DNA of 15,803 nt from Anaerolineae bacterium (GCA_027021705.1 JALUTT010000030.1:1-15803); one strand, 5' to 3'; shown: positions 2 through 15,543, counted from the stretch's first letter. The notes: generated by a model not told the origin, from the letters alone. Made by a program: numbers and translations.

Positions 2-1576
2 TCCTACCGCATCGCCGAGCATCCGGCGGCGCCGGGGATACCCCACGGCCAGGAGGGCCGCCAAGCCATCGTCTATCGGGTCGTCACCGAGGGAGGCGAT
101 GCCCGAGCCCTGAAGGTCTTCAAGCCCCATTATCGCTCTCCTGCCCTCGTCGCCCAGGCGGAGCGCATCGCCCCCTACGCGGCCCTGCCCGGCCTGCAGG
201 TCTGCCGGCGCACCGTCCTCACCCCCCAACGCCACCAGGCCCTGTTGCGCCAGTATCCCGACCTCGCCTACGCCGTCTTGATGCCTTGGATCGAAGGGGC
301 AACCTGGTGCGAGGTGCTCACCGGAGGGTGGACGCTGACGCCGACGAAGAGCCTGGCCCTGGCCCGTTCGCTGGCCAAGGTATTGGCCGTGATGGAAAGG
401 CGAGGACTGGCCCACTGCGACCTATCGGGCGCCAACGTGATGCTGCCTGAATGGGGGGATTTCGATAGAAGAGCGCCGGCCGGCACCGAAGACGTGGACA
501 TCGTGCTGGTGGATGTGGAGCAGATGTATGGACCGGGGATGGAACGACCGGAGAAGCTGCCCGGCGCCTCCCCCGGCTACGCCCACCGGAGCGCCTCCGA
601 CGGGCTGTGGGGGGAACGGGCCGACCGGTTCGCCGGGGCGGTGCTGATGGGGGAGATGCTGGGATGGTGCGATGAGCAAGTGCGCCAAGCGGCGGGGGAG
701 GGGGAGAGCTACTTCAACCCAGACGAGATGCAACAGGAAACGACACGGTACCGGCTGCTGATCCAGGTGCTCGAAGCTCGATGGGGGCACGACGTAGCAG
801 CCGCCTTCGAGCAAGCCTGGTTCTCGGACACACCCGCTACCTGTCCCTCGCCGGCAGCGTGGACCGAGATCCTCTCGGTGGCGGGTCCGGGAGTCGGTGA
901 GCCGCGAAGCGACCGCAAGACGAAGCCCCCCTCTATGGTGTCGAAGAAGCCACCAGCCCCCCCACCTCCGCCGGAGGAGGAGGCAGGGGAGGGCTCAATG
1001 CTCTGGGAAGAGCTAGGCCGTTTCGAGACGGTGATCCGCACCACGGTGAAACGCTTGGACCATGAAGCGGCCGCCCTGGAGCAGCAGCGGCAGGCGCTGG
1101 CCGATCGAGAGGCCGACCTTCGGCGTCGCAAGCAAGCGTTGGCCGAGGTCGAACAGCAACTGGAGGAAGCCCGGCATCTGCTGGAAACCCACCGTTATCG
1201 GGAAGCCCAGCAGTCCCTGGAAAGGCTGACCACGATGCTGGCGGGGTCGGAGGTCTCAGACATCCCCTCTGAGGAGCCTGAAGCGCCTGTCCAGGCCCGC
1301 CTCGTCGCTCAAGAGGGCCCGGCCGCCGGGCGGGAGTTCTTGCTGCAAGAGGTGATGACCATCGGGCGGGCCAGGGAGAACGACATCGTGCTGAACGATC
1401 TGGCGGTCTCCCGCTGGCACGCCAAGATCAAGCGTGAGGGAGGGGCCTTCTTCATCTACGATTTAGGAGCCACCAACCCCATCCGCGTGAACGGCCAAGA
1501 GGTGGACCACCACCCGCTGGCCGACGGAGACCGGGTAGAGATCGGTCGTAGCCTGTTGATCTTCAAGCTGGGATGA
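2..1576 (+). CDS. Atypical Ser/Thr protein kinase with Pro-rich linker, coiled coil and C-terminal FHA domain (5'-truncated by the window edge)
   Basis: The frame is open from base 2 (SYRIAEHPAAPGIPHGQEGRQAIVYRVV...ALKVFK), so the TTG at 245 is not the true start. Motifs: GQEGRQAIVY (Gly-loop-like), ALKVF (beta3 Lys), HCDLSGANV (catalytic loop), LVDVEQ (DFG position), ADRFAGAVL (subdomain IX). An E/Q/R/L-rich heptad helix lies at ~998-1240. FHA motifs: IGR...VSRWHA...DLGATNP..VNG. Confidence 0.88.
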   Translation, partial: SYRIAEHPAAPGIPHGQEGRQAIVYRVVTEGGDARALKVFKPHYRSPALVAQAERIAPYAALPGLQVCRRTVLTPQRHQALLRQYPDLAYAVLMPWIEGATWCEVLTGGWTLTPTKSLALARSLAKVLAVMERRGLAHCDLSGANVMLPEWGDFDRRAPAGTEDVDIVLVDVEQMYGPGMERPEKLPGASPGYAHRSASDGLWGERADRFAGAVLMGEMLGWCDEQVRQAAGEGESYFNPDEMQQETTRYRLLIQVLEARWGHDVAAAFEQAWFSDTPATCPSPAAWTEILSVAGPGVGEPRSDRKTKPPSMVSKKPPAPPPPPEEEAGEGSMLWEELGRFETVIRTTVKRLDHEAAALEQQRQALADREADLRRRKQALAEVEQQLEEARHLLETHRYREAQQSLERLTTMLAGSEVSDIPSEEPEAPVQARLVAQEGPAAGREFLLQEVMTIGRARENDIVLNDLAVSRWHAKIKREGGAFFIYDLGATNPIRVNGQEVDHHPLADGDRVEIGRSLLIFKLG

Positions 1577-3069
1577 CGACGATGGAACCGGGAGCACTGG
1601 TCGGGACCACTCTGGGTAGGTACGAAGTTCGGGCCGAGATCGGTCGAGGACGGCTCAGCGCTGTCTACGAAGCCTACGACGGCGTAAACGAGCAGCCGGT
1701 CGTGGCCAAGGTCCTCACGGCGGAGCCGGGAGACGACAGCACCTTCCGGCAGCGCTTTGAGAACCTGGCCCAGGCGCTGACCGGGCTCAACCACCCCAAC
1801 GTCCTGAAGCTCTACGACCACGGGGTGGACCCCGAACGGGGGCTTTTCTACCTGATCTATCCCTTTATCGGGGGAGCCACCTTGGATCAGCAGCTTGGGG
1901 CCCCGTGGCCGTTGGAGGAGGCCGTGCGCATCGCGGCCGAGGTGGCCCGGGCGTTGGACCACGCCCACGGTCAGGGCCTGGTCCACGGAGATGTCCGGCC
2001 CAACAACGTGCTCCTCACCAGCCGGGGCTGGCCCCTGCTGACCGACTTCGGCCTGTGGGACCTGCTACGCTCCGGGCAGATGACCGACCTGGACGCCGAC
2101 GTGGAGGTGTACCGGGCACCGGAACAACTCCAGGGTGCACCGGCCAGCCCGGCCACCGACCTATACGGCCTGGGGGGGATTCTCTACGAGATGCTGACGG
2201 GCCGTCCCCCGCTCCGGGAGGGGGGGGTGGTGACGCCCCCCCGCCGGCTCCGGGCGGAGGTGCCCCGCCCCCTGGAGCAGATCGTGCTGAAGAGCCTGAC
2301 CTCCGATCCAGACCAGCGCTACCCGTCGGCCGGGGAGATGGCTCGGGCACTGGAGGAGGCCTTGGAAGAGGCCGGTGGCGCGTCGGCCCGGCCTAGGGCC
2401 ATCACGCCGCCCTCGGGAGTGAGGACGGGAGAGGCCCAGGCAGCCCTGCCCCCGGCCTCCGGCGCGATCGCGTTCACCCGGCGGGTGGGAGGGGCTTTAT
2501 GGCGGGTGGGCCGGTGGCTTCTGGTCAGGGCGATGGTCTTGGGACTCATCTTGGTGTTGGTGGCGACGGCTTTGCTCGTCGGCGGGGCCTACGCCACAGG
2601 ACAAGTAGCCCGGCGGATCTTGGCCGCCCAGGATTGGGGCTGGCAACCCCAGCCCCGGCCTACCGAGGTGACAACTTCGGAATCCTTCCTGCAACAGCGC
2701 CTTGCCGAGATGATCGTCCCTTACACCCAAGGGATCCTGACCGATCCCCAAATTGATCTGATGGCTCCCGACCGGATCGTTTTCCGAGGACAGGTATATG
2801 GGCGCCCTCTGGAAGGCGTGGTGCGGATCGGGGTTCAGGACGGGGCCCCTTTCCTGCGGGTGGAACGGATCAACGGCGTGGTCCCTTACCTGATCGGCGA
2901 CCTAATCACGAACGGGGTCAACGAGGGGCTGCGCCTGTCGTGGGACCGTCAGCCGGTACGCCTGCGGGTCCTGGAGACGGGGGAGGATCACATCCGGGCG
3001 GTGGTCGAACCCAAACCGGAGGCCGCCTCTCCGTCCTCCCCTTCCTCGCCGGGGGGAGGTGAAGGGTAG
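1573..3069 (+). CDS. Membrane-anchored Ser/Thr kinase-like protein (degenerate, possible pseudokinase) with a folded extracytoplasmic C-terminal domain
   Basis: IGRGRLSAVY, VVAKVL, HGDVRPNNVLL, LTDFG, YRAPEQ, TDLYGLGGILYEMLTG, DPDQRY. Hydrophobic TM segment MVLGLILVLVATALLVGGAYA. ATGA overlap with the upstream stop codon (1573-1576). Confidence 0.9.
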   Translation: MTTMEPGALVGTTLGRYEVRAEIGRGRLSAVYEAYDGVNEQPVVAKVLTAEPGDDSTFRQRFENLAQALTGLNHPNVLKLYDHGVDPERGLFYLIYPFIGGATLDQQLGAPWPLEEAVRIAAEVARALDHAHGQGLVHGDVRPNNVLLTSRGWPLLTDFGLWDLLRSGQMTDLDADVEVYRAPEQLQGAPASPATDLYGLGGILYEMLTGRPPLREGGVVTPPRRLRAEVPRPLEQIVLKSLTSDPDQRYPSAGEMARALEEALEEAGGASARPRAITPPSGVRTGEAQAALPPASGAIAFTRRVGGALWRVGRWLLVRAMVLGLILVLVATALLVGGAYATGQVARRILAAQDWGWQPQPRPTEVTTSESFLQQRLAEMIVPYTQGILTDPQIDLMAPDRIVFRGQVYGRPLEGVVRIGVQDGAPFLRVERINGVVPYLIGDLITNGVNEGLRLSWDRQPVRLRVLETGEDHIRAVVEPKPEAASPSSPSSPGGGEG

Positions 3070-3072
3070 CCG

Positions 3073-4245
3073 ATGACACGGGAGACGCGCCCGTCGCCCC
3101 AGTTCCCGGCCGATGCGCTGGTGGCGGCCGTGGCCTCGCGAACCGGTTCCGACCACGTCCGCAACGAGGACGCTTGGTGGATGCCCGATGGGGAGACGCC
3201 CACTCCCCACCAGAAGCTGGAGAAGGGCACCCTCTACATCGTGGCCGACGGCGTGGGCGGGCACGCAGCCGGGGAAGTCGCCAGCCGGATGGCGGTTGAG
3301 GAGATCGCCCGGGCCTACTACCGGGATTCCTCGGAAGAGGTCTCGGTGGCCCTGCGTCGGGCCCTCCAAGCCGCCAACGAGGCCGTCTACCGCCAAGCCC
3401 AAGGGTCGGATCGGCAGGGGATGGCCGCGACGGTCGTGGCCGCCGTCGTCCGAGGGCAGGAGTTGGTCATCGCCCACGCGGGCGACAGCCGAGCTTACCT
3501 GTTGCGCCAGGGACGCCTGCACCGGTTGACCACTGACCACACTTGGGTGGCAGAACGGGTTGCCGAAGGAGTCCTGACCCCCCAGGAGGCAGCAGTTCAC
3601 CCCCAACGCCACCTGATCACCCGGGCGTTGGGGGATCAGCCCACGTTGGAGCCGGAGGTTCAACCCTACGTCTTCCTACCGGGGGATCGGCTGTTGCTGT
3701 GCACCGACGGGGTATGGGAGTTGGTGGATGAGGGCAAGCTCCGGCGAACCCTCCGAAAGGGGACGGCCGAACAGGTGGTCGGCGCGTTGATCGAGCAGGT
3801 TGAGGTCCTGCAGGGGGCCGACGATGCCACCGCCCTGGTGGTGGAGACCCGGCCCCCGGAGGAACACCGGGGGGAGAAGGTCCGGTCGAGGAGCCCTCGT
3901 CCGGCGCTCCTCCTCGCCGTCGGGCTGCTGACCGGCCTGCTCATCGGCTGGTGGGTGCTGGGATGGTGGCTCTTCCCGGTGCGGTGGACCGATGCGGCGC
4001 CGGCGGACCTCCACCCCGACTATCGGGTGCTCTACTTGGACCTGTTGGCCCGGGCTTACGCCGCCGATCCCGGCTTGGACGTGAGGACCTACGTTCGGGA
4101 ACGCTGGCCCCCCGCCCAACTGCAGGCCGACCTGGAGCGGGCCTATCGGCAGGCCGATCCGATGCAAAGGCGCCGGCTCGAACGGTTGGCCGCTGCCCTG
4201 CGCGTGCGACTCTCCGGCCGGAGCCGGGCAGGGCCGGACCGATAG
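3073..4245 (+). CDS. PP2C/PPM-family Ser/Thr protein phosphatase with TM helix and small C-terminal helical domain
   Basis: PPM motifs RNEDA, IVADGVGG, HAGDSRAY, LTTDH, LITRALG, LLLCTDG, DDATALVV. TM segment ALLLAVGLLTGLLIGWWVLGWWLF. Starts 3 nt after the previous stop. Confidence 0.93.
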   Translation: MTRETRPSPQFPADALVAAVASRTGSDHVRNEDAWWMPDGETPTPHQKLEKGTLYIVADGVGGHAAGEVASRMAVEEIARAYYRDSSEEVSVALRRALQAANEAVYRQAQGSDRQGMAATVVAAVVRGQELVIAHAGDSRAYLLRQGRLHRLTTDHTWVAERVAEGVLTPQEAAVHPQRHLITRALGDQPTLEPEVQPYVFLPGDRLLLCTDGVWELVDEGKLRRTLRKGTAEQVVGALIEQVEVLQGADDATALVVETRPPEEHRGEKVRSRSPRPALLLAVGLLTGLLIGWWVLGWWLFPVRWTDAAPADLHPDYRVLYLDLLARAYAADPGLDVRTYVRERWPPAQLQADLERAYRQADPMQRRRLERLAAALRVRLSGRSRAGPDR

Positions 4246-4405
4246 CGGCCGGGGGATTGCCGAGGCGGCCTGCCGGACAGGGTCCCCACGGAGCGGCCCG
4301 GGCGTATGGGGGGCAATCTGACGAGTCGCCCACGCTCCCCGCTCCTGAGATATGGGACATCATCAGAAACAGAGAGTTCGACAGTCACGTATGTAGGAGG
4401 TCAAG

Positions 4406-6106
4406 ATGAGCACGGGTCTTCGTCGTTGGGCTTTCCTCCCTCTTGGGGCGGTCCTGGCGCTTCTCCTGCTGGCCGGTCTCCTGACGCTGGCCGGCCTGGA
4501 GCGATCATCGGTCCACGCGGCCGTTCCGACCGGCTCTTCGGTTCGGCTCCCGGCCGTCCACCTCGCTCAAAGCGGTCCCTACACGCCGGTCGTGACCATC
4601 ACGATGCCTGCGGCTAATGAGGTGCTGACGTCCAGTGCCCAAGCCGTCTACCCGGTCCAGGTGGCCTATTCCTGCGGTACGTCCTGTACTGGCTCTGCCC
4701 TGCTGGACGTGGTCTCGGTCACGGTGGACGGAGGGGTGACCTACCACGAGGCCCTTTCGGGGGTCGTGGCCGGTCTGTACGTCTACAGTTGGACGCTGCC
4801 GACGGAGGACCGCGTCGCCCACATGCTCATCGCCCGGGCCCGCAACGGCTACGGGCAGATCGGGACTTCCAAACCGATGACCGTCTGGGTGGACCGGGTG
4901 ATGCCGACGGTGGTGATCACCGGGCCGGAGAGGTGGGCCGGGCTGACCCCCATTCCCCTTCGGTGGAACGCCCAGGACGGCAGCGGCATCCGGCGCGTGC
5001 GCCTTCACGTCCTGACGGGCACAGACTGGCAGGAAGCCGGGCCGGCACAGACGGGCCTCTCCGGGACCTTCTTCTTTACGCCTACAGAGAACCTCACCTA
5101 CACCTTCACCCTGCAGGCTACCGATGGGGAGGGGAATCAGAGCCCCCTTCCCGGCCCAATGATCACCGTCACGGTCCAACCGGTCCGGGTCTACCTGCCC
5201 GCCGTAGTGCGCGACTATCCGCTACCGTGGCGGCAGGGTGCAAATACCGCAGGCAAGGTGTTCCGCACTCCTTCCGGGTGCAAGGAGAAGACATGGTACG
5301 CCGGGACCTCGGGCGACGACGGGGTGTGGAAGTCTACCGACGGCGCGGAGACTTGGGAGAAGGTAGCCGACCTAAAACCCTACGCCTACCCGGTGGTGGC
5401 CAACCCCTCGAACTGCGACGAGGCCTTCGTCGCGGTGTGGGGGCCGGGGGTGTATCGCATCCAAGGGGGAGCAGCGACCCCCATCAACAACGGCTTGGGG
5501 GAGCTCTACCTCTACGGCTTGGCGCTGAGCGGCACCACCCTCTACGCGGGCACGAGCAGTCAAGGCATCTACAGGACGGCTATAGACAACATCGCCTGGA
5601 CACCGGCAAACGAGGGCATTAACGACAAGCGTATCCGCTCCTTGTACGCTGCGGAAGGGAAGTTGTATGCCGGAGCCCGGGGATGCACCCTTTACGTTTC
5701 CGGCAACGGAGGGGCTACTTGGAGTGAGTTCCCCATTCCGGTCCAAGGCGGTTGTGACGATGCTCAAGTATGGAGTCTTGCGCCGGCCCAGGGGGCCCTC
5801 TACGCCGGCCTGGGGCAGGAGAAGGGCCTCTACGTCCTGGAGGGAACCACCTGGAGCCGAGTGGAGGCCATCCCTGCCAAGACCATCTACGGGCTGGCCT
5901 ACGACGACACCTATGGCTACCTCTACGTGAGTGCGTATGGGGCAGGCGTCTACCGATGCCGGATAGATGGCTCGGGGAGGGCGACAACCTGCTCCCCTCA
6001 CAACGAAGGGCTTACTACGGCGGAGACACGCGAGATCACCATCCACGGAGGGTTGGTGGTCGTCGGAAGCAACGACGGGGTCTGGTATCGCCCCCTGCTG
6101 CCCTGA
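4406..6106 (+). CDS. Secreted protein: signal peptide, two Ig/FN3-like domains, VYLPAVVR motif, BNR/Asp-box beta-propeller
   Basis: AGGAGG RBS 5 nt before the ATG. Basic plus hydrophobic N-terminus ending ...SVHA. Ig-like beta-strand patterns (PVVTITMP...LIARARNGYGQ; PTVVITGP...YTFTLQATDGEGN). Asp-box-like motifs WKSTDGAETW and YVSGNGGATW, with repeated LYAG..G(V/I/L)Y blades. Paired cysteines. Confidence 0.85.
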   Translation: MSTGLRRWAFLPLGAVLALLLLAGLLTLAGLERSSVHAAVPTGSSVRLPAVHLAQSGPYTPVVTITMPAANEVLTSSAQAVYPVQVAYSCGTSCTGSALLDVVSVTVDGGVTYHEALSGVVAGLYVYSWTLPTEDRVAHMLIARARNGYGQIGTSKPMTVWVDRVMPTVVITGPERWAGLTPIPLRWNAQDGSGIRRVRLHVLTGTDWQEAGPAQTGLSGTFFFTPTENLTYTFTLQATDGEGNQSPLPGPMITVTVQPVRVYLPAVVRDYPLPWRQGANTAGKVFRTPSGCKEKTWYAGTSGDDGVWKSTDGAETWEKVADLKPYAYPVVANPSNCDEAFVAVWGPGVYRIQGGAATPINNGLGELYLYGLALSGTTLYAGTSSQGIYRTAIDNIAWTPANEGINDKRIRSLYAAEGKLYAGARGCTLYVSGNGGATWSEFPIPVQGGCDDAQVWSLAPAQGALYAGLGQEKGLYVLEGTTWSRVEAIPAKTIYGLAYDDTYGYLYVSAYGAGVYRCRIDGSGRATTCSPHNEGLTTAETREITIHGGLVVVGSNDGVWYRPLLP

Positions 6107-6181
6107 GTGGACGTGGGGCACCGCGGACGCTCTATCAGGTGGGTCTGAAGTTTAGAGTTAAGTGGAGAAGGGGAAAGGACT

Positions 6182-8149
6182 ATGGCACGTGCAAAGCTTC
6201 TTCGCGGCAGTTCGCAATCTCGACGGTCCACGTATCGGAGAAAGGGGCTGTGGGCATGGGGAGTTGCAGTGGGGTTGAGCCTGCTCCTGGTGGCCGGCGC
6301 CCTGGCCGCCGGTGTGGGACGGGTGGCCATCACCACCGTGGACGCCTCCGGCTATCCCACGGTGACCCTCTACCTGGCCGTCAACGATGTGGACGGCCAG
6401 CCCATCACCGACCTGCAGCCGGACGAGGTCACCCTCTACGAAAACGACGTCCAGGTCTCGGACTTCACGTTGGAGTCCACCGAGCACCCGATGCTCATCG
6501 GCGTGGTGATTGACTCCAGCGGCAGCTTCGCCCGCCGGGAAGGGGGTGCCCGTCGGGTGGACCACGCCCGGGAGGCAGCCCGGCGACTGATCTCCCCTGA
6601 CTTCCAGCGCCTCATCCTGGACGATGAGGTGGCCGTCTTCGCCTTCAGCGGTGGCCTTCCTGTCCGGCTGGTGGATTTCACCTACGACCACAACCTGGCC
6701 ATCAACGAGGGGCTGAACAAGGTGGACACGGCCGGCAACCAGAACACAGCCCTCTTCGACCTGGTACGCCAGGCCATTGAGGACGCTGCAGGACGGGAGG
6801 GGGTGCGCCGACGGATCCTCCTTGTCTTCTCCGACGGCACCGACCTGGTCAGCGGCGTTGACGTGGATCGGGTCATCCAAGAGGCAGTGGACGCCCACCT
6901 GGTCATCTATACCGTGGGGCTGGGGAACAACCTGGCCCCAGACCAGCCCCGTTCCGCCTTCTTGCGCCGCCTGGCCGACGAAACCGGCGGTCGGTATATG
7001 TGGTACCGGCCGGGGCGGAAAGGGGCTCAGGAGGCGCTGGATGCCTTTTTGGACCTCCTCGTCTCACAGCGGCAGGGGTACGCGCTGCGCTACTCGACCA
7101 AGCAGTACGAAGGGACCCCGGAGGTGCGGGTCGCGGTGAGCCGGGAGGGACGTGTGGCCGAGGATACCGCTCGGTACGAGGTCCCGCCCCTGCCGCCGGA
7201 GGTGGTCGTCGAGAACCTCCAAGAAGGACAGGTCCTGGTCGGCTCCGTCACCGTCCGGGTGGCGATCCGCCGGGCCCAGCGCCCCATTGACCGGGTCGAG
7301 TACCGGGTGGACGGGGAGTTGGTCTACACGGCCAAGGCCGAACCCTGGGATTTCCCGTGGGATACCACGGCCTACGGCAACAGCCCGACCGAGGCAGCCC
7401 CCCACCAGTTAACGATCACCGTCTACGACATCGGCGGATACCAGGCCGAGACCGGGCTGGTGGTCGGGGTGCGGCTCCCCCCGCCGACACCAACGCCGCT
7501 GCCGACGCCGACCCCGGCGCCCACGCCGACCCCCCAGCCGCCGCCGGTTGGACTGTACGCCATCTCGGCCAGCTCTCTGCTGATCGCCCTGATCGCCCTG
7601 ATTCTGCTGATCGTCCTCATCCGGCGGGGTGGGATGCGCATGGTCGGGCAAGTCGCTGCCGAGGTGCGCCGTCGCACCCGGGTGCTGCGGGGGAAGACCC
7701 GCATTTTCGGCGGCCAGGGGAAGCCGCTGGCTACCTTGGTTGTCGCCGATGGGGCCTTCGAGGGACGTCGCTTCGAGATCTACGAACCCAAGGTCTTCCT
7801 AGGGCGGGAGGAAGAGCGGAGCGACTTGGTCTTCGACTGGGACGACTACGTCTCGCGGCGCCACGCCAAGATCGCCAAAGAGGGAGACCGGTTCTACATC
7901 TGGGACCTCAACAGCGCCAACGGCACTTGGGTTGACGAGCAGCGGGTGCCCCGCTCCCTATCCGAAGGGCTCGACTTGAAGGAGGCGCTCCCGCTCCAGG
8001 ATGGCGCCGTCGTCCGGCTGGGTCCCTACTTGCGTCTGGTCTTCCACACTTCGTCGCCGGTGGACATCTCAAAGGCGCCGACCCAGACGCTGCTCCAGAC
8101 GCCCGAGCAATCCCCCACCGCCGTGTGGGGACAACAGGAGGAGCGTTAG
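6182..8149 (+). CDS. Membrane protein: signal/anchor, vWA domain, Ig-like domain, PT linker, TM helix, cytoplasmic FHA domain
   Basis: Intact MIDAS (VIDSSGS at 6512-6526, NTALFD, VFSDG; also IYTVGLG and LADETGG). Ig-like segment IDRVEYRVDG...WDTT...HQLTITVYD. Linker PPPTPTPLPTPTPAPTPTP. TM segment LLIALIALILLIVLI followed by RRGG. FHA motifs LGR...VSRRHA...DLNSANGTWV. Confidence 0.92.
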   Translation: MARAKLLRGSSQSRRSTYRRKGLWAWGVAVGLSLLLVAGALAAGVGRVAITTVDASGYPTVTLYLAVNDVDGQPITDLQPDEVTLYENDVQVSDFTLESTEHPMLIGVVIDSSGSFARREGGARRVDHAREAARRLISPDFQRLILDDEVAVFAFSGGLPVRLVDFTYDHNLAINEGLNKVDTAGNQNTALFDLVRQAIEDAAGREGVRRRILLVFSDGTDLVSGVDVDRVIQEAVDAHLVIYTVGLGNNLAPDQPRSAFLRRLADETGGRYMWYRPGRKGAQEALDAFLDLLVSQRQGYALRYSTKQYEGTPEVRVAVSREGRVAEDTARYEVPPLPPEVVVENLQEGQVLVGSVTVRVAIRRAQRPIDRVEYRVDGELVYTAKAEPWDFPWDTTAYGNSPTEAAPHQLTITVYDIGGYQAETGLVVGVRLPPPTPTPLPTPTPAPTPTPQPPPVGLYAISASSLLIALIALILLIVLIRRGGMRMVGQVAAEVRRRTRVLRGKTRIFGGQGKPLATLVVADGAFEGRRFEIYEPKVFLGREEERSDLVFDWDDYVSRRHAKIAKEGDRFYIWDLNSANGTWVDEQRVPRSLSEGLDLKEALPLQDGAVVRLGPYLRLVFHTSSPVDISKAPTQTLLQTPEQSPTAVWGQQEER

Positions 8150-8225
8150 GGATTGGGAAGAGCGGGTGAGGCGGGTGGGGAGTGCAGTGGAACGCAGGAT
8201 AGGTGTATCGGAAAGCGGGTTGGCC

Positions 8226-8239
8226 TGTAGACATCTACA
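8226..8239. promoter_or_regulatory. Palindrome TGTAGA-CA-TCTACA, candidate operator
   Basis: Perfect 6-2-6 AT-rich dyad in a GC-rich background, directly upstream of the RBS of the kinase at 8258. Confidence 0.35.
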
Positions 8240-8257
8240 TAGGGGAGGTTAGAGGCT

Positions 8258-9529
8258 ATGGCGGTTTTGGATCGCGGGTTTTCTAAGGGGAGTCAGATCG
8301 GCCCTTACGTCATCGTCGGACCGGTGGCCGGGGGGCACGGCGGGATGGCGACCGTCTACCGGGCTCGCCTGTACGGGCAGGGGGAGGTCGTCGCCCTGAA
8401 GGTCGCCCGGCCCGGCCTGGGCAGCTTCTTAAAAGACGAGACGGCCTTCCTGAAGGCGATGAGGCTGGAGCACCCTCACATCATCCGGGTCCTGCCGACG
8501 CCCATTGATGGCAGTTCCAGCGAGTACGTCGTCAAGGACCCCCAGAGCGGGCTCTGGTACTTTGCGATGGAGTACCTGGCCGGCGGGTCGCTGGATGACT
8601 GGCTCCGGCGGCGGAAGCGGCTGAGCCTGGCCCAAGCCGTGGAAGTCGTGCGCCAGGTGGGATCGGCCCTCGATGCCGCCCACCAGGCCGGTATCGTCCA
8701 CCTGGATGTGAAACCCAGCAACATCCTCTTCCGCAGCAAGCCGGAGAAGGGGAACCTCCACGCCGTGCTGACCGATTTCGGCATCGCCAGGACCGTCGGG
8801 GGACGGGGGGAGGCGGGGAGCTCCACCCTGACCATCGAGTACGCCTCGCCGGAGCAGGTGCGCCAGGCCCTGGGGGAGCCCACGGCCGTCGGGCCGTCGG
8901 CGGACCTCTACTCCCTGGCCGTCATCCTCTACGAGATGATCAGCGGACAGCTCCCCTTCGGCGAGGTCGAGAACGAGGTGACGGCGATGCACCGGATCAT
9001 CTACGAGGAGGTTCCCCTGCCGGTGCCCCACGGGCCGGAAGAGCTGACCCCCATCCTGGAGAGGGCGATGGCCAAGGATGCAGCGGCCCGCTTCCCCTCC
9101 TGCCGGGCCTTCGTGGCGGCCCTGGAATCGCTTCCGCCTTATCTCTTGCAGCGTCCCCCGGAGCCCCCGGAGCACCCGACGCGCCGGCTCCACCCGGCGC
9201 TCACCGTCGCGCTGGCGTTGGTGTTGGGAGCGGTCGGGGGGTTCCTCGCCGGGCGTGCGACGGTGCCGCCGCCTACTTCGACCCCGCCGGCCATCGTCAC
9301 GACGGTGGAGGTGACCCGCGTGGTGACGGCTACCCCCGCCTCCCTGTCGGAGCCCTCCGCCCTGGAACCTTTGGCGACTCCCAGGCCGGCGGCCACCGTG
9401 ACGATGGCTCCGACGAGGGCCGTCTCCACGCCGACCCGGCCGCCGACCTCGACGCCCGTTCCACCCACGGACACGCCGAGGCCTCGTCCCACCTCGGCCC
9501 CTCAGCCTACGCCCACACCGGGCGGGTGA
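8258..9529 (+). CDS. Membrane-anchored Ser/Thr protein kinase (non-RD) with Pro/Thr-rich C-terminal tail
   Basis: GGHGGMATVY, VALKV, FLKDE (alphaC Glu), FAMEYL, HLDVKPSNILF, LTDFG, EYASPEQ, ADLYSLAVILYEM. TM segment ALTVALALVLGAVGGFLAG. GGAGG RBS at 8244-8248. Confidence 0.93.
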   Translation: MAVLDRGFSKGSQIGPYVIVGPVAGGHGGMATVYRARLYGQGEVVALKVARPGLGSFLKDETAFLKAMRLEHPHIIRVLPTPIDGSSSEYVVKDPQSGLWYFAMEYLAGGSLDDWLRRRKRLSLAQAVEVVRQVGSALDAAHQAGIVHLDVKPSNILFRSKPEKGNLHAVLTDFGIARTVGGRGEAGSSTLTIEYASPEQVRQALGEPTAVGPSADLYSLAVILYEMISGQLPFGEVENEVTAMHRIIYEEVPLPVPHGPEELTPILERAMAKDAAARFPSCRAFVAALESLPPYLLQRPPEPPEHPTRRLHPALTVALALVLGAVGGFLAGRATVPPPTSTPPAIVTTVEVTRVVTATPASLSEPSALEPLATPRPAATVTMAPTRAVSTPTRPPTSTPVPPTDTPRPRPTSAPQPTPTPGG

Positions 9530-9699
9530 TTCGAAGGGATTACGAACATCCGGTGAAGGGGACAACAACGGATCGGCTCCCGGTTGCCGAGAGGTCCGTC
9601 CAGATCGGAGAAGGGCGCCATTCGTTGATTCGTTCAGAATCCGTTGACAAGGACATCCCAGAAGTTCGCAGAGTCGTAGGATATGCCGGAGGAGTGCTG

Positions 9700-10923
9700 A
9701 TGAGCAAAGCAGATCGAACCCCACCCATCGAGGCGGCCGTCCTGAGCGATCCGGGGGGACGCCGGCGCAACGAGGACACCGCCTACAATTGCGAAGAGAT
9801 GGTGGAAGCGGAACAGTTGGCGTCCCGGGGTCGCCTCTACATCGTCGCCGACGGCACGGGCGGTCAGGCAGGAGGGCAGACGGCCAGCCGTAGGGCTGTG
9901 GATGTGGTCGAAGAGTATTACTACGACGCCGACGGCGACCCCGGCGAGGACCTGAAGGCAGCCGTCGAGGAAGCTCATCAGGAACTCTATGCGAGGGCTC
10001 AGAGAAGACCTGCCTGGGCCAGGATGAGCACAACCTTCGTCGGGGCGGTCCTGTACCAGGGAACCCTCTACGTGGCCCACGTGGGCGACAGCCGGGCCTA
10101 CTTGATCCGCGACGGCCAGGCCCGCCTGCTGACCCGCGACCACGTCTGGTTGGAAGACGACGAGAACTACGGGGCGCTCACCCGTTGGTTGGGAGGGGAG
10201 GGGAAGCCGGAGGTCGAGGTGGACCTGACCACCGAATCCCTCCAAGAGGGAGACGTAATCGTGCTCTGTAGCGACGGCCTGACCGACGTGGTGGATGGCG
10301 AGGACATCCAACAGATCGTCACCCGGTATCCGGCGTCCAAGGCGGTCCATCGGCTTGTTGCCTTGGCCAAGCAGCGGGGCACGACGGACAACGTGTCGGT
10401 GGCCGTGATCCGCTACGGCGGGAAGCCGACGGCCCCGGCCGGCCGTGCGCTCTGGGCATGGGCCGGCCTGGCCTTCCTCGCCCTGACCGCAGTGGTGCTG
10501 GCCGTGGTGCTGCTGCGCCCCGGCAAAGAGGTAGGGGGAAACGGGGGGCCGGTTCGGGGAGATGATCAGACAAGGGGCACGGTCCCAGCGGCGACGCCGG
10601 TTCCTCCCACCCCCACGCTGTCCTCGGTGATCAAGGTCGAGAAGACGCCCACGCTGGCGGGAGCCTCTGCGCCGACGGCGACCGCTTCGCCGACGGCGGG
10701 CCCGACCCGACCGCCGACCTCGACGCCCGTCCCGGCGACGGACACGCCGACGCCACGCCCGACCCGCGCTGCCCCGCCCGTCCTGCCGACCCCGACGTCT
10801 CAGGCAACGGTGCCGGCCCCCACCCCGGTGCCTGGAGGCCCGCCGCCGCCACCGCCGCCGACCCAACCGCCGCTGCCACCGCCGACCCAGACGCCGTCAG
10901 AGGGAGGTAAGGAGGGAAAGTAG
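9700..10923 (+). CDS. PP2C/PPM-family Ser/Thr protein phosphatase with TM helix and Pro/Thr-rich tail
   Basis: Motifs RRNED, IVADGTGG, HVGDSRAY, LTRDH, VLCSDG, TDNVSV. TM segment LWAWAGLAFLALTAVVLAVVLL. The ATG at 9700 is preferred over the GTG at 9526 in the ORF track because GGAGGAG lies at 9688-9694 and this N-terminus has a length similar to the other PP2C. Confidence 0.9.
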   Translation: MSKADRTPPIEAAVLSDPGGRRRNEDTAYNCEEMVEAEQLASRGRLYIVADGTGGQAGGQTASRRAVDVVEEYYYDADGDPGEDLKAAVEEAHQELYARAQRRPAWARMSTTFVGAVLYQGTLYVAHVGDSRAYLIRDGQARLLTRDHVWLEDDENYGALTRWLGGEGKPEVEVDLTTESLQEGDVIVLCSDGLTDVVDGEDIQQIVTRYPASKAVHRLVALAKQRGTTDNVSVAVIRYGGKPTAPAGRALWAWAGLAFLALTAVVLAVVLLRPGKEVGGNGGPVRGDDQTRGTVPAATPVPPTPTLSSVIKVEKTPTLAGASAPTATASPTAGPTRPPTSTPVPATDTPTPRPTRAAPPVLPTPTSQATVPAPTPVPGGPPPPPPPTQPPLPPPTQTPSEGGKEGK

Positions 10924-11044
10924 GAGCACCGTGGAGAAGTACGCCGCGTTCACAAGAACCCGCCGGCCGCCTATGTCGGGTCGGTCCTAGCGGTGAGGAG
11001 ATGCTCCACCGGACAAGCCACGTTGGAGGGTATCTATTCAGCCT

Positions 11045-11141
11045 ACCCTTCCGCAGGTCACCGGTCGAGGGCGCTTTCGGCCCCGATAGGCTATTTGAAA
11101 CACGGTTTCGCGTTGGAAACACGCCTAACCTGCGGGAGGGT
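11045..11141. other. Intergenic structured element closed by a 14-bp stem (candidate cis-regulatory RNA or REP/MITE-like element)
   Basis: ACCCTTCCGCAGGT (11045-11058) pairs with ACCTGCGGGAGGGT (11128-11141): 13 Watson-Crick pairs plus one G-U. Internal hairpins are present. Confidence 0.5.
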
Positions 11142-11272
11142 GAACAGTTGGGTTGGAGGAAACTGCCTCTTGGCACAGGACGTAAGAGTCAGGGGGGAAG
11201 GGGGATCAGCCCGGCAGCCAGGACGGGACTCCGACGCTGCGAGGTCCTGTCATCGGTGCTAGGGAGGAAGGG

Positions 11273-12634
11273 ATGACACTCCAGAAGGGGCAGGTGCTGC
11301 AGGATCGCTATCGCGTGATCGAACCGTTGGGGGAAGGGGGGATGGGGGCCGTCTACAAGGCCTGGGATGCCCGGCTGGAGCTCTTCGTCGCCGTCAAGGA
11401 ACTGGTCCCCCAGCCGGGGTTGGATGCCCGGGCGCTGGACCAACTGCGCCGCCAGTTCCGCCGGGAGGCCACCGTCCTGGCCCGCCTGGACCATCCCCAC
11501 CTGGTCCGTGTGACGGACTTCTTCGAAGAGGGGGGAAACGTCTACTTGGTGATGAACCTGGTGGAAGGGGAGAGCCTAGCAGAGCGGATCGCCCGAGAGG
11601 GGCCGCTGCCGGAGGCGGAGGTCTTGATCTGGGCGGGGCAGTTGCTGGACGCCCTGGCCTACTGCCACCGGGCGGGCGTGGTGCACCGGGACGTGAAGCC
11701 CCAGAATGTGATCCTGCAGCAGGATGGACGGGCCGTACTGGTGGATTTCGGGCTGGTGAAGCTGTGGGACCCCCAGGACCCCCGCACGAGGACGGCGATT
11801 TGGGGGGCGACTATGGAGTACGCACCGCCGGAGCAACTGGGGCTGGGCGGGGGACACACCGATCCCCGCTCCGATCTCTATAGCCTGGGGGCGACCCTCT
11901 ACCACGCCCTGACGGGGCAGGCACCGCCGATGGCCACAGAACGGGTCGCGGAGCCGGAACGCTTCGTCCCGCCCAGGGCCGTGGTCCCGGGGATCGGCAA
12001 GCGGACGGAAGCGGCCGTGGTGAAGGCGCTTTCGCTGCCGATGGCGGAGCGGTTCCACAGCGCCGACGAAATGGCCCAGGCGCTGGGGGTGGCCACCGGA
12101 GAGGCGCCGGCGGGACGAGCACGCCGGCGAAAGGGCTTCCGGGCGTGGGGATGGGCGGCCGGCGCCCTGATCGTGCTGGGGGTGGTCGCGGGAGCCGTCC
12201 TCGGTACCGGGGGAAGGGGAGGGCGAGGGACACCGACGCCTTCGTCCGAGGCCGGGGCGACGTCGCCGGCAGTTCCGGCAGAGACCCGGGGCTCTCCCAC
12301 CCCTTCTGCGACGGTGACGGTCGTCCTTCTCCCGACGGCCACGGCGACGTCCACGGGGACCCCAACGCCGAGTCCGACGGCCACCAGGACGCCAACCTTC
12401 ACGCCGAGCCCTACGCTGACGCCGACGGTAACGCCACGGCCCACGGTGACGCCGATTCCGCCGACGGCCACGCCGACGCGCTTGCCGCCGACGGCCACGC
12501 CGGTCCCACCGCCGACCCAGCCGCCGCCACCACCGCCGACCCAGCCGCCGCCGCCGCCGACCCAGCCGCCGCCACCGCCGATATCCACCCCGCCACCACC
12601 AGTTGAACCAACTTCTACTCCACCACCGCCGTGA
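11273..12634 (+). CDS. Membrane-anchored Ser/Thr protein kinase (canonical RD type) with Thr/Pro-rich and poly-Pro tail
   Basis: LGEGGMGAVY, VAVKE, FRREA, HRDVKPQNV, LVDFG, EYAPPEQ, SDLYSLG. TM segment WGWAAGALIVLGVVAGAVLG. GGGAGG RBS upstream; double stop TGATGA. Confidence 0.95.
   Translation: MTLQKGQVLQDRYRVIEPLGEGGMGAVYKAWDARLELFVAVKELVPQPGLDARALDQLRRQFRREATVLARLDHPHLVRVTDFFEEGGNVYLVMNLVEGESLAERIAREGPLPEAEVLIWAGQLLDALAYCHRAGVVHRDVKPQNVILQQDGRAVLVDFGLVKLWDPQDPRTRTAIWGATMEYAPPEQLGLGGGHTDPRSDLYSLGATLYHALTGQAPPMATERVAEPERFVPPRAVVPGIGKRTEAAVVKALSLPMAERFHSADEMAQALGVATGEAPAGRARRRKGFRAWGWAAGALIVLGVVAGAVLGTGGRGGRGTPTPSSEAGATSPAVPAETRGSPTPSATVTVVLLPTATATSTGTPTPSPTATRTPTFTPSPTLTPTVTPRPTVTPIPPTATPTRLPPTATPVPPPTQPPPPPPTQPPPPPTQPPPPPISTPPPPVEPTSTPPPP
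12506..12580 (+). repeat. Coding tandem repeat, three copies of CCGCCGACCCAGCCGCCG (PPTQPP units)
   Basis: Three units spaced 24 and 21 nt apart. An exact 18-nt repeat CCGCCGACGGCCACGCCG precedes them at 12458-12475 and 12485-12502. Confidence 0.85.
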
Positions 12635-12678
12635 TGAGAGCACTGTCCGGTCTTCTGTAGCTTCTCGGAGGTGAAACG

Positions 12679-14883
12679 ATGAACAGCAACATTAGGGTGT
12701 TCGCATCCATGTTCCTTGCAATCGCACTGCTGCTCATCGCGCTAGCGGTCAGTACAGTTACAGCTCAGGGGCCTTCCGTCGAGGGTTCTCCTGGGCCCGC
12801 AGGGGTAACCAACCCTACCACAGTCTTGTACCAGGGTTACGTTACGGTGGAAGGCACACCGTACAATGGCACCGGGTACTTCAAATTCGCCATCGTCAAT
12901 GCTGCCAGCGATACCACATACTGGTCTAACGACGGTACCTCCAGTGGAGGGAGCCAGCCAAATGCAAGCGTACCCATCTCTGTGGACAATGGCTATTTCA
13001 CCGTTCTGCTGGGCGATACCTCTCTAAATGGTATGACCCAATCGTTGTCCCCCTCGGTCTTCGCTGGGGCGGGGCGGTATCTGCAAGTCTGGTTCGCTAC
13101 CTCTGCTCCTGGCCCCTTCACGCAGCTAAGCTTGTTGCCCATCACCGCCGCGCCCTATGCCCTAAACGCTGAGACATTGGATGGTTATGACAGTGATGCT
13201 TTTGCCACAGCCGATCACACCCACTGGGGGGAGGCATGGTTGGGCAATGGGACGGGATTGACCCTCTACAGTGATGACGGCACTGGCCTGTACAGCGCAA
13301 GAGGCGATGTGAGTATCTTCTGGGGTGCCTCGGGGGGACAAGCTATCTGGGGAGACAGCAGCAGTGCAGTCGGTTTGTACGGCACCAGTGACAGCAACTA
13401 TGGGGTGTACGGTATCAGTGGTTACAGTTACGGTGGCTATTTCTCGAGCACCTATTCCAGCGGTGTTAAGGCAGAAGGAGGCGAGGTAGGCCTGGTTGCC
13501 CGATCCTACTCCGCAAGTACGATTCGGCCGGCCGTGTATGGTGAGAACCGGGGCTTTGGTGCTGGCTTCGGGGTTGAAGGCTACAGCGCTGGTGGCATTG
13601 GCATCGTCGGGGAAAGTATCACGGGTACAGGAGTTGTCGGGATGGCCGGCTATGACAATGACGGCTTTATGGACGAGTCCCTACGCAACGACGTAGTCAA
13701 CGCACGGGCCGGAGTTTATGGGTGGAGTTCCAGCGGATACGGCGGCTACTTCACCAGCATATATGGCTGTGGAGTGTGCGGTACAAGTTACGACTTGGAC
13801 GGTGTGCGTGGTGTAAGCACCGGTGGTGATGTGGCCGACAATGGCGTATATGGCGAGACGAACAGTACTGATCCTGCAGAGGCCGGGGTTTACGGCTACA
13901 GCAGCAGCAGTGCTGCAGGCGTGAGAGGGGTTGGCAATGACATAGGTGTATATGGCTATGCCTTTGCGATCACAGGCACAACCACCGGAGGCTTTTTCCA
14001 GTCCGCCTCTGATGGCGGCCGGGGAGTCTATGGTTGGACCCCCGCCAACACGGGCAATACCTATGGGGTCGTCGGTGACTCTGCCTCATCTTCTGGAACG
14101 GGCGTATTCGGCCTTGCTAGCGCCACCACAGCAACCAACACTGGTGTGCTCGGCTATGCGAATGGCATTTACACCGACACGGCAGGGGTGAAGGGACTTG
14201 CAACTGCTACATCGGGTTATGCCACCTTTGGTGTATATGGTCGGTCTGACTCTAGTGGAGGGGCAGGGGTAATGGCTTATAACTATTGGTATGGTGTTGG
14301 CTTGCGCGCACAGAGCTACGGTGGCGACATCATCCAGGGTTACTCGGGAGACCCTTTCGCTCCGGACGAAGCATTGCGCTTCCGTGTAGACAACTCTGGT
14401 AATCTATGGGCCAGCGGCACCAAAAGTGCTATGGTGCAGACCCAAAATTACGGCTCCCGCAGCCTTTATGCCATCGAGAGCCCTGAAGTCTGGTTTGAGG
14501 ATTTTGGGACTGGGCAATTAGTCAATGGCGAAGCCACAGTGTTCTTCGACCCCATTTTCGCTCAGACGGTCAGCCTGACCGAAACCTATCATGTTTATCT
14601 AACTCCCCTGAGCGATGAGGCAGTTGTGCTCTTCGTAACGGAGAAAGGCCCAACCAGCTTCACTGTTCGTGGTGTCACACTGGACGGTCGGCCGGCAAAC
14701 GCGGCTTTCGACTACCGCATTGTTGCGAAGCGGCGGGGATACGAGAACGTGCGCCTGGAGCCACCACGGGCATCGCAGGTGTGGGCAGAAGGGACATCAC
14801 GGCCAAAATCGGGAGGGCCTGCGCTTCCACCGCTGCCTGAACGTCCGGAGATCCCTCCATATCCCCAGGAGGAAGGCAGGTGA
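12679..14883 (+). CDS. Secreted fibre/tailspike-like protein with GVYG-type repeats
   Basis: GGAGGTGA RBS at 12667-12674. Sec signal ending VTA-Q. N-terminal domain YQG...NG.F.V.LG...RYLQV...PYALNA.TLDG. About 28 G-hydrophobic-x-G/F/A repeats. C-terminal domain GTKSA...LYAIESPEVWFEDFG...FDYRIVAKR, of a kind I recognise from the ends of fibre and phage tail proteins. Lower GC than upstream genes. Confidence 0.75.
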   Translation: MNSNIRVFASMFLAIALLLIALAVSTVTAQGPSVEGSPGPAGVTNPTTVLYQGYVTVEGTPYNGTGYFKFAIVNAASDTTYWSNDGTSSGGSQPNASVPISVDNGYFTVLLGDTSLNGMTQSLSPSVFAGAGRYLQVWFATSAPGPFTQLSLLPITAAPYALNAETLDGYDSDAFATADHTHWGEAWLGNGTGLTLYSDDGTGLYSARGDVSIFWGASGGQAIWGDSSSAVGLYGTSDSNYGVYGISGYSYGGYFSSTYSSGVKAEGGEVGLVARSYSASTIRPAVYGENRGFGAGFGVEGYSAGGIGIVGESITGTGVVGMAGYDNDGFMDESLRNDVVNARAGVYGWSSSGYGGYFTSIYGCGVCGTSYDLDGVRGVSTGGDVADNGVYGETNSTDPAEAGVYGYSSSSAAGVRGVGNDIGVYGYAFAITGTTTGGFFQSASDGGRGVYGWTPANTGNTYGVVGDSASSSGTGVFGLASATTATNTGVLGYANGIYTDTAGVKGLATATSGYATFGVYGRSDSSGGAGVMAYNYWYGVGLRAQSYGGDIIQGYSGDPFAPDEALRFRVDNSGNLWASGTKSAMVQTQNYGSRSLYAIESPEVWFEDFGTGQLVNGEATVFFDPIFAQTVSLTETYHVYLTPLSDEAVVLFVTEKGPTSFTVRGVTLDGRPANAAFDYRIVAKRRGYENVRLEPPRASQVWAEGTSRPKSGGPALPPLPERPEIPPYPQEEGR
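13285..14316 (+). repeat. Degenerate protein-level repeat array (GVYG/GGYF-type units, mostly 9-15 aa spacing)
   Basis: GLYGTS, GVYGIS, GGYFSS, GVEGYS, GIVGES, GVYGWS, GGYFTS, GVRGVS, GVYGET, GVYGYS, GVYGYA, GGFFQS, GVYGWT, GVFGLA, GVLGYA, GVYGRS and others. Confidence 0.85.
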
Positions 14884-14886
14884 GCG

Positions 14887-15543
14887 ATGAAGCGACTGAG
14901 AAAAGCCATTCCTCTACTACTGCTCCTATTGTTCGTTGGCAGCGTGGCCCTTGCCCAGAGTACAGCCGCCATCAGTCGCTGGGTTATCGGGGGCGGGGGA
15001 GGCACAGCCATTGGTGGCAACGTATCCATAAGCAGCACATTGGGCCAGGCGATTGCCGGGCCTGGCAGAGGCAGAGACGTTGATCTCTGCGTCAATCTTT
15101 GGTGCAACGAAGTGACCGAGCACACTGTCTACCTCCCGGCGGTCGTGAGAAACTTCTTCACTTACGCCCTACCCTGCGGATCGGCTAACAACTACTGTGA
15201 GGATTACGACTCTTCGGAAAGCGCCTATGGTCCACTGGAACCTGGCATAGCCTATAGTGCCTATCCAGACGATAGGAATGACTACTATTACTTCATACTT
15301 CCGGATTCTATGATCCGCTCGATTGAGGTCAGAGTGACCAATTATCAGGCCGTAGGACAAGTGCTCGTACGCGACAGGTCACTAGGTATTGTAGGAAGAG
15401 ATGAGAGAAAATCGGGAGAAGATTATGAAATGCGAGTCTTGATTCCCAACCTCTTGCCAGGTAAATACTACATCCAGCTCTACACGGACTTGGACAAGGA
15501 GAGGAATCCCAGTGCGCGTTATACCCTAACGGTGAATTACTAA
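14887..15543 (+). CDS. Small secreted protein: Gly-rich N-terminal module, VYLPAVVR motif, PPC-like beta-sandwich
   Basis: Signal peptide MKRLRKAIPLLLLLLFVGSVALA-Q. Module SRWVIGGGGG...GG.VSISSTLGQ..AG. TVYLPAVVRN. C-terminal DRNDYYYF...PGKYYIQL...YTLTVNY resembles pre-peptidase C-terminal domains. AGGTGA RBS overlaps the upstream stop. Confidence 0.8.
   Translation: MKRLRKAIPLLLLLLFVGSVALAQSTAAISRWVIGGGGGTAIGGNVSISSTLGQAIAGPGRGRDVDLCVNLWCNEVTEHTVYLPAVVRNFFTYALPCGSANNYCEDYDSSESAYGPLEPGIAYSAYPDDRNDYYYFILPDSMIRSIEVRVTNYQAVGQVLVRDRSLGIVGRDERKSGEDYEMRVLIPNLLPGKYYIQLYTDLDKERNPSARYTLTVNY

Follow-up and report, generated by a model that had tools for sequence, protein, structure and literature searches.

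What do ten consecutive genes that combine Ser/Thr kinases, PP2C phosphatases, FHA domains and exported proteins do for a member of the Anaerolineae? They fill a contig of Anaerolineae bacterium (GCA_027021705.1 JALUTT010000030.1:1-15803), here called the window, which is the whole of contig C30 (15,803 nt) in an assembly of 5.19 Mb and 183 contigs. The ten open reading frames (ORFs) all lie on the + strand, and their products are named P1 to P10 in window order. An original prediction, made from the window alone, had described them as a self-contained Ser/Thr signalosome linked to secreted surface proteins, one that could not be matched to a described system. Our analysis favours another answer, to which we assign a probability of roughly 0.55: the window would form the distal third of a type VII secretion system (T7SS) locus, ~40 kb long and co-directional, and P1 to P10 the phospho-signalling arm of that locus. 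Proteins were scanned with Pfam and NCBIfam, membrane helices were read from hydropathy, and neighbour genes in high-GC flanks were called by domain searches over all ORFs. C-numbers denote contigs of the same genome (G000) and L-numbers (L021, L062 etc.) loci fetched from related Anaerolineae.

The first gene of the window is cut at the contig edge. P1 lacks 16 residues at its 5' end; its ATG lies 48 nt upstream on contig C65, the first 126 nt of which matched the P1 kinase-domain query with 100% identity. Exact 127-nt end overlaps chain the contigs in the order C24-C65-C30-C113, and each contig end matched one other contig only. Reading frames continue across two of the joins. At C65/C30, P1 gains a start codon and 16 residues that resemble the N-termini of its paralogue and orthologues, and at C24/C65 an ORF with a WXG100-type head begins on C24 and extends into C65. 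The genes of C24 and C65 lie on the strand equivalent to the window's + strand, and the stop codon of the gene for EssC is found ~7.3 kb before the P1 start, in the same direction. From their sequences, C24, C65 and C30 read as one co-directional T7SS locus of ~40 kb. On the 3' side P10 is followed by housekeeping genes in convergent orientation, which encode RsmI and an isomerase of the bacterial PGI type, and the locus therefore ends at P10. The word "self-contained" in the original prediction does not survive this result, since what lies upstream of base 1 is a T7SS locus. The accompanying statement that no T7SS genes are present holds inside the window and fails upstream, where EssC, WXG100 and EspG-fold proteins are encoded on C24 and C65.

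Central to the T7SS core on C24 is EssC, the ninth gene in upstream order (1705 aa; C24:5120-10237, minus strand of the contig). It contains three FtsK_SpoIIIE stretches, scores 1266 bits against NCBIfam TIGR03928 (cut-off 778), and has membrane helices at residues 41-59 and 67-85, with 40 residues ahead of the first helix and no N-terminal FHA domain. The C-terminal end of the protein holds a complete Hanks Pkinase domain (residues 1437-1700; HRDVKPSN, DFG). Most other EssC ORFs of the class have lengths of 1300-1500 aa. The eighth gene encodes a 91-aa WXG100 protein (C24:10322-10597; PF06013, 82.6 bits, cut-off 27.3), and besides it WXG100-type N-termini were found on proteins of 194, 437 and ~377 aa; two of the WXG100-headed proteins look like T7SS polymorphic toxins. 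The fourteenth gene, directly before P1, encodes a protein of 263 aa (C65:518-1309) whose structure model (predicted local distance difference test score, pLDDT, 93.4) gave EspG1/3/5 as the top 17 PDB matches, with TM scores of 0.65-0.73 and E values of 5e-12 to 7e-9. This protein is a predicted EspG-fold, putative T7SS substrate chaperone.

Phospho-signalling genes accompany EssC elsewhere in the class. EssC-like ATPases were found in 55 of 401 sampled Anaerolineae genomes, and of 23 EssC loci examined 18 have at least one gene for a kinase, PP2C or FHA protein within the flank that was fetched (two of the five loci without one are contigs of ≤6.6 kb). As a rough control, drawn from the window's own genome only, such a gene was present in 399 of 5000 stretches of 20 kb chosen at random. 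EspG-like homologues occur in 8 of the 23 loci. Downstream of EssC the order in L062 is FHA, PP2C, vWA-FHA and kinase; in L138 it is FHA, PP2C, vWA, zinc-ribbon-FHA and a kinase 59% identical to P8; in L153 it is a WXG-toxin-like protein, an EspG-like protein, WXG, FHA and PP2C. L158 carries orthologues of the L062 genes (77-84%) followed by the locus of a P5 orthologue (65-72%), and because it bridges the two, P5 in that lineage is estimated to lie ~14 kb downstream of EssC. P5- and P8-type modules thus recur downstream of EssC in another Anaerolineae family. At the genome level EssC was present in 12 of the 21 genomes with a P5-like protein vs 43 of the 380 without one (odds ratio 10.4, a comparison in which relatives are not independent, so that the p-value overstates).

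P1 itself (2-1576, +) consists of a divergent kinase-like domain (aK, residues 1-300), a coiled coil and an FHA domain (PF00498, 6.6e-18) at the C-terminus, with no membrane helix. Residues 1-300 gave no Pfam match at E ≤ 0.01. In a 13-member alignment of the aK family K38, H138-C-D140, N145 and D171 are invariant, and we read K38, D140, N145 and D171 as the likely catalytic Lys, HCD Asp, Asn and DxE Asp. The aK profile matched 555 kinase sequences among solved structures at E ≤ 1, the best being TP53RK/Bud32 (2.6e-5), and an AlphaFold model of the domain (pLDDT 90.3; predicted TM score, pTM, 0.89) matched at least 500 PDB chains at E ≤ 0.001. Among the matches listed for the model there were protein kinases only, and EssB/YukC was not one of them. 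Because the invariant catalytic residues, the profile matches and the model matches agree, residues 1-300 are assigned as a predicted fourth kinase, divergent but intact. A paralogue 68% identical to this domain sits in the T7SS core on C24, in a kinase-WD40 protein. The domain was found in 12 of the 401 genomes and adjoins EssC in L071, L119, L126 and L135 as well as on C24; near three aK loci none of the query domains was present. The kinase/coiled-coil/FHA architecture of P1 was found in none of four genus-g80 genomes searched.

The remaining enzymes of the window are membrane proteins. P2 (1573-3069, +) is a Hanks Ser/Thr kinase (Pkinase 3.4e-32; motifs HGDVRPNN, DFG and APE) with a helix at 318-336 and an outside domain of ~160 aa that gave no Pfam match. 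P3 (3073-4245, +) is a PP2C phosphatase (PP2C_2 1.5e-17; motifs DGVGG and CTDGV) with a helix at 278-296 and an outside domain of ~90 aa; it also matched the Stp1/IreP NCBIfam model at 2.2e-60, under that model's cut-off. P6 (8258-9529, +; Pkinase 3.3e-37) is a Hanks kinase with a Pro/Thr/Ser-rich outside tail. P7 (9526-10923, +; PP2C 1.8e-17), a second PP2C phosphatase, and P8 (11273-12634, +; Pkinase 1e-46; motifs HRDVKPQN and DFG), a canonical Hanks kinase, have Pro/Thr-rich outside tails. In all five a single membrane helix follows the catalytic domain. Orthologue alignment suggests that P7 may start at Met59 (window 9700), not at the GTG. A motif scan found HxD...N and DFG in P2, P6 and P8, and DGxGG and DG in P3 and P7.

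P5 (6182-8149, +) has two membrane helices. From the N-terminus it comprises helix 27-45, a vWA domain whose metal-ion-dependent adhesion site (MIDAS) motif DSSGS (111-115) is intact, a Big_7 Ig domain, a Pro/Thr linker, helix 461-479 and an FHA domain at 539-614. Because the N-terminus and the stretch past the second helix are rich in Arg/Lys, the vWA-Ig part is predicted to lie outside and the FHA domain inside, and P5 is a predicted receptor-adaptor. The FHA domains of P1 and P5 both contain GR and SxxH; SANG is present in P5, and the TN of P1 was read by eye.

Three proteins carry hydrophobic N-terminal leaders. P4 (4406-6106, +), exported or anchored, has an Ig-like region with a weak Big_7 match in Pfam, a YLP box within the chain (residues 262-269) and a C-terminal half that resembles a propeller; the F510_1955 model of NCBIfam matched it at 6e-8, under the cut-off. 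P9 (12679-14883, +) is an exported Gly/Ser/Tyr-rich protein, possibly fibre-like, for which Pfam and NCBIfam gave no match and a protein atlas gave only leads to collagen-like and tail-fibre-like clusters. P10 (14887-15543, +) is exported; its N-terminal part is Gly-rich and closes with a YLP box (81-88), and the possible PPC-like beta-sandwich that follows is a structure lead from the protein atlas only, Pfam and NCBIfam having given no match. Six short paralogues of P10 were found in the genome, and four of them, of ~92-108 aa, stop at the YLP box. The pattern [VI]YLP[LVA]V[LVM][RK] has 71 hits in this genome, ~45 of them at the very C-terminal end of large proteins, while in P4 (window 5189-5212) and P10 (15127-15150) it is internal, with a further domain after it. 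A YLP-box model was not listed for either protein in NCBIfam at E ≤ 10, and a literature search on "YLPLV" returned unrelated papers only.

As an inventory of the window the original prediction was largely accurate. The ten consecutive + strand genes and their coordinates were reproduced, as was their tight coupling through overlaps (ATGA at 1573-1576 between P1 and P2, GTGA at 9526-9529 between P6 and P7) and 3-nt gaps (3069/3073 between P2 and P3, 14883/14887 between P9 and P10). Four kinase domains (three Hanks and the divergent aK), two PP2C domains, two FHA domains and the vWA with Big_7 were all recovered, and so were six membrane-anchored proteins (P2, P3, P5, P6, P7 and P8) and three with leaders for secretion (P4, P9 and P10). 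The predicted topology of P5 agrees with an extracellular vWA, and PASTA, division and T6SS (type VI secretion system) genes were absent from the window in Pfam and NCBIfam. The window makes up 0.3% of the bases of the genome and holds 3 of its 19 Pkinase, 2 of its 3 PP2C_2 and 2 of its 8 FHA matches, a density that is not due to chance; the neighbouring contig C24 carries 2 further Pkinase matches. The whole locus encodes at least seven kinase domains, two PP2Cs and one PP2C-like protein.

The ten genes are conserved as blocks. Only P4-P5-P6-P7, the core, and P8-P9-P10 are conserved, and P1-P3 are lineage-specific; the complete ten-gene set was not found in the relatives or metagenome loci searched. 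Orthologues of P5-P6-P7 with 58-69% identity and the same order were found in two genomes of another family and on one contig of a metagenome-assembled genome; a scan of genome contigs with P5 found one relative only. In a protein collection P5 has 38 orthologous clusters (39-63% identity), and none of them has a functional name, the source names being generic, e.g. "VWFA-related protein". The MIDAS and the phosphothreonine-binding residues of the FHA domain are kept in 23 aligned P5 orthologues. Among 18 metagenome loci with a P5 orthologue, several of which are close relatives of one another, a kinase follows directly in 17 and a PP2C comes after the P5/P6 orthologues in 14, the other 4 being truncated at contig ends. 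Upstream sequence is available for 13 loci, and in 8 of these the ORF immediately before the P5 orthologue is P4-related. The propeller of P4 had no orthologue in five relatives searched. A more distant P5-like architecture (~30% identity) is present in 21 of the 401 sampled genomes.

P8 orthologues (59-69% identity) close ArnA/ArnB-like modules in relatives, in one case downstream of EssC. In L021:6991-10515 and L163:8015-10760 a zinc-ribbon protein, a vWA protein and a zinc-ribbon-FHA protein are encoded between the P7 and P8 orthologues. In the window that exact place is taken by a 349-nt spacer containing a repeat of ~120 nt (11030-11149), which has 200 blastn matches in the genome, its own copy counted; in four runs the contig depth rises ~100-fold at the repeat, with many loose ends. 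For the product of L163:4663-7929 a wall hydrolase with a link to phosphothreonine signalling is conceivable; it is reminiscent of the EssH hydrolase of the T7SSb. A further kinase/PP2C/vWA/FHA gene set is found elsewhere in the window's own genome (C132:26070-30953). The second block recurs in L072, where a kinase (52% to P8) is followed by P9 (45%) and P10 (40%) orthologues, and then by more kinases, a vWA, a small WXG100 and a WXG100-RHS protein.

The other upstream genes are given here in their order. On C24, DJ-1, a 257-aa vWA protein and a PP2C-like protein with one membrane helix (first to third) are followed by a WXG100 protein of 194 aa and a 271-aa EspG-family protein, so placed by alignment with the modelled copy (fourth and fifth), and by the 1294-aa kinase-WD40 protein and a 230-aa membrane protein with about four hydrophobic segments (sixth and seventh). 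A second WD40-repeat ORF in another frame (C24:11617-17009, minus) overlaps the end of the kinase-WD40 gene; two separate genes, a frameshift or misassembly of the repeats could each explain this. After EssC come a WXG100-type head on a C39-like (C39/C70-like) cysteine peptidase (tenth; C24:3792-5105), a membrane kinase and a 636-aa polytopic membrane protein (eleventh and twelfth), and a WXG100-type head on a domain of ~230 aa (thirteenth; C24:1-248 joined to C65:1426-2505). That domain gave weak glycine-zipper and DUF6861 signals, and the gene is followed by the EspG-fold gene. A trio of vWA (~260 aa), PP2C-like and aK genes is a recurring unit, sometimes duplicated, found in L123, L124, L125, L128 and C24:13125-21464; in its domains it resembles a TerY-P triad built on a divergent kinase. 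On the 5' flank, on the opposite strand (C24:22287-24916 and C25:431-4228), lie NB-ARC/sigma-70-region-4, TPR and CHAT-TPR genes, that is, STAND-type and caspase-like conflict genes. Contigs from other samples or studies (runs X2, X3 and X4) cover most of the window with ≤38 differing letters per piece, and therefore related strains carry the same locus, with differences; runs X2 and X3 are labelled hydrothermal vent metagenome.

Is this arm of the locus also its regulator? Help in controlling the adjoining secretion machine is the most likely role of P1-P10; we infer it because of the physical linkage, the recurrence in a second lineage and the published analogues. Several observations weigh against the T7SS reading. 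The contig joins are assembly-graph overlaps without spanning reads, and no YukD/EsaB-, EssB-, EsaA- or EssA-like component was found by Pfam in the ORFs scanned, the small ORFs of C24 and C65 having been read by eye only. Matches to P5 and EssC are absent from three genomes of the same family. Spacers of ~340 nt ahead of P1 and 349 nt ahead of P8 allow separate transcription; a promoter and terminator scan of the window gave counts no higher than expected by chance. Copies of the P5 unit that stand alone weaken the inferred control of secretion: no match to EssC was obtained in 9 of the 21 genomes that encode a P5-like protein, EssC, WXG100, EspG-like and aK were found in 0 of 18 metagenome P5 loci (flanks ≤10 kb), and EssC lies in the flank of only 1 of 24 class-wide P5-like loci. 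In L167 and L169 the genes upstream are PBP, IF-3, L20, ABC transporter and RsmF genes together with a divergent sigma-factor gene.

These same observations feed the strongest alternative, that P4-P7 and the other kinases form an autonomous envelope or surface module, with targets such as wall growth or surface proteins, and that the T7SS neighbourhood is incidental here and in one other lineage. The class-wide vWA-FHA loci fit it well, with a kinase in 21 of 24, a PP2C in 20 and both in 18, and EssC nearly always away from them (1 of 24 class-wide, 0 of 18 metagenome loci); so do the housekeeping neighbours and the divergent sigma-factor gene of the one clade represented by L167 and L169, and the long spacers before P1 and P8. 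Set against this, adjacency to EssC recurs with two different vWA-FHA paralogues in two gene orders, the kinase domain of P1 belongs to a T7SS-locus family, EssC itself bears a kinase, and the genome-level odds ratio of 10.4 joins P5-like proteins to EssC. We regard an autonomous module as possible, at well under even odds.

It is improbable that the cluster is a self-contained signalosome for adhesion or contact, with the secreted P4, P9 and P10 as its outputs. The position of P4 before P5 is conserved, the kinase/P9/P10 order returns in L072, and YLP boxes in P4 and P10 and export leaders on all three would suit such outputs, but the locus runs on upstream into T7SS genes and conservation does not extend to all ten genes together. 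Additional copies of P9- and P10-like proteins are encoded at other places in the genome, and in L073 their genes adjoin BTAD/AAA/TPR regulator genes, with no kinase domain among the neighbours scanned. The reading of a self-contained, unmatched signalosome is partly supported, and an outside-in surface-sensing role for the cluster is plausible. Least probable of all, at long odds, is a TerY-P-like or other kinase-based anti-phage defence island: the kinases match the PADLOC models PD-T4-6 and mad6, P3 matches PDC-M21C, the vWA/PP2C/kinase make-up recalls the TerY-P triad (PMC11090510, available portion) and NB-ARC/TPR and CHAT/TPR genes lie on the 5' side, but the PADLOC matches are to generic kinase (and PP2C) domains, P4, P5, P9 and P10 match nothing, the P5 vWA is predicted to be extracytoplasmic and FHA-fused, the kinases have no zinc-ribbon or OB fusion, and no nuclease or restriction partner is present.

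How does the T7SS locus compare with known systems? That it could not be matched to a described one was too strong a statement, since T7SS variants with kinase, PPM, FHA and vWA components, T7SSc to T7SSj, have been defined in Bacillota and Actinomycetota (Garrett, Higginson and Palmer 2024, PMC11217815). In the sections of that paper available to us, the T7SSc is built from WXG100, an EssC that lacks FHA domains and proteins resembling YukD and EspG; it further has a membrane kinase whose active site is intact, a vWA protein of the cytoplasm and a PPM phosphatase. FHA proteins come in with other subtypes, and control of assembly or activity by threonine phosphorylation is raised by analogy with the T6SS. 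As far as these sections go, the present locus shares with T7SSc-j the FHA-less EssC, WXG100, an EspG-like chaperone (TscG), a PPM phosphatase (cf. TscF), membrane Ser/Thr kinases with intact active sites (cf. TscD; here P2, P6 and P8) and, apart from P5, a vWA protein of cytoplasmic type (cf. TscE; here the 257-aa protein encoded on C24). Separate FHA proteins are shared with T7SSe, f and j, and the WXG100-headed toxin-like proteins are comparable with the LXG and RHS substrates. The likeness is one of domains and gene content only. The present locus differs in belonging to Chloroflexota, in the kinase fused to EssC, in its number of kinase and PP2C-type domains (at least seven of the former, two PP2Cs and one PP2C-like protein), in the predicted extracytoplasmic vWA-Ig receptor linked by a helix to an FHA domain, in its kinase-coiled-coil-FHA protein, and in that the YukD-like TsxB was not found among the ORFs scanned. 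No word beginning "Chloroflex" occurs in the text of PMC11217815. According to the available part of a review, a few WXG100 sequences are found in Chloroflexota, and the EssB pseudokinase binds the FHA domains of EssC (PMC10765036). No paper on a T7SS of Chloroflexota that includes kinases came up in literature searches, nor anything for TerY, PP2C, vWA and FHA in combination. Other phyla are already known to have T7SS variants that include kinases, PPM phosphatases, FHA and vWA proteins; none of the papers found describes one in Chloroflexota.

Among systems outside type VII secretion, the PpkA-PppA-Fha1 pathway of the Pseudomonas aeruginosa T6SS comes close. The consulted portion of PMC3224232 gives PpkA an extracellular vWA sensor domain and has it act via Fha1 and PppA; both systems place a membrane Ser/Thr kinase, a PP2C, an FHA reader and an extracytoplasmic vWA beside a secretion machine, and the predicted logic would be the same, with an outside signal leading to phosphothreonine, FHA docking and secretion. 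They differ in that the vWA is here fused to the FHA protein, not to the kinase, and in that the machine is of type VII. No T6SS family appeared in any locus scan, so the locus would work like that threonine-phosphorylation pathway without being a member of it. The TerY-P triad of vWA, PP2C and kinase (PMC11090510, in its available portion, citing Anantharaman et al. 2012) likewise brings these three genes together, and the upstream vWA/PP2C-like/aK trio recalls it. In P5, by contrast, the two membrane helices that flank the vWA have basic residues on their cytoplasmic sides, so that the domain is predicted to be outside, and it is FHA-fused; P2, P6 and P8 are without zinc ribbon or OB fold, and there is no tellurite or restriction context. 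The same portion of PMC11090510 describes EssC-like ATPase/WXG100 cassettes with flanking TerY-like vWA genes; unlike these CoCoNuT-linked ATPases, the present EssC has membrane helices. The zinc-ribbon, vWA and zinc-ribbon-FHA genes between the P7 and P8 orthologues of relatives resemble ArnA/ArnB of Sulfolobus (zinc-finger-FHA plus vWA), a pair that Pfam and NCBIfam did not find in the window, where the repeat-bearing 349-nt spacer stands instead. A PknB-PstP-FhaA/FhaB division cluster was considered as well; Pfam matched none of the ten proteins to a PASTA, FtsW/RodA or transpeptidase family, and the NCBIfam PknB_PASTA_kin matches cover the kinase domain only and are under the cut-off.

If the genes of the window do control the T7SS, the following scheme can be proposed. 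The outward MIDAS-vWA/Ig part of P5, perhaps with the exported P4, would sense a ligand, surface contact or the state of the envelope. Threonines would then be phosphorylated by P6, P2 and P8, kinases that span the membrane once, and possibly also by the kinase of EssC. On these phosphothreonines the cytoplasmic FHA domains of P5 and P1 could dock to scaffold or gate the secretion machine, and the membrane PP2Cs P3 and P7 would reset the switch. By analogy, this would be the logic proposed for T7SSc-j, with the same four domains as PpkA-PppA-Fha1. Its most specific form, in which an Anaerolineae T7SS is run by an outside-in threonine-phosphorylation gate, P5 with its own kinase, phosphatase and partner P4 reporting contact or envelope damage to the kinase-bearing EssC, is offered tentatively.

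To our knowledge, a T7SS has never been studied in Chloroflexota, a filamentous phylum. The present locus extends the kinase-linked T7SS to that phylum, and three features make it distinctive: the fusion of EssC with a kinase, the outward vWA-Ig-FHA receptor accompanied by an exported partner, a kinase and a PP2C, and the kinase-coiled-coil-FHA protein. P4-P7 form a four-gene receptor unit that occurs in many uncultured Anaerolineae and goes without a functional name in the protein sources searched. How type VII secretion is switched on is an unanswered question, and the 2024 survey of T7SS variants merely suggested phosphorylation control. The locus supplies parts for it, namely a kinase-fused secretion ATPase, two phosphothreonine readers and an outward-facing receptor, and the EssC-kinase fusion is gene-fusion evidence for a coupling of ATPase and kinase functions. 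The outside-in gate, if true, would correspond, on the type VII side, to the PpkA-PppA-Fha1 switch of the T6SS.

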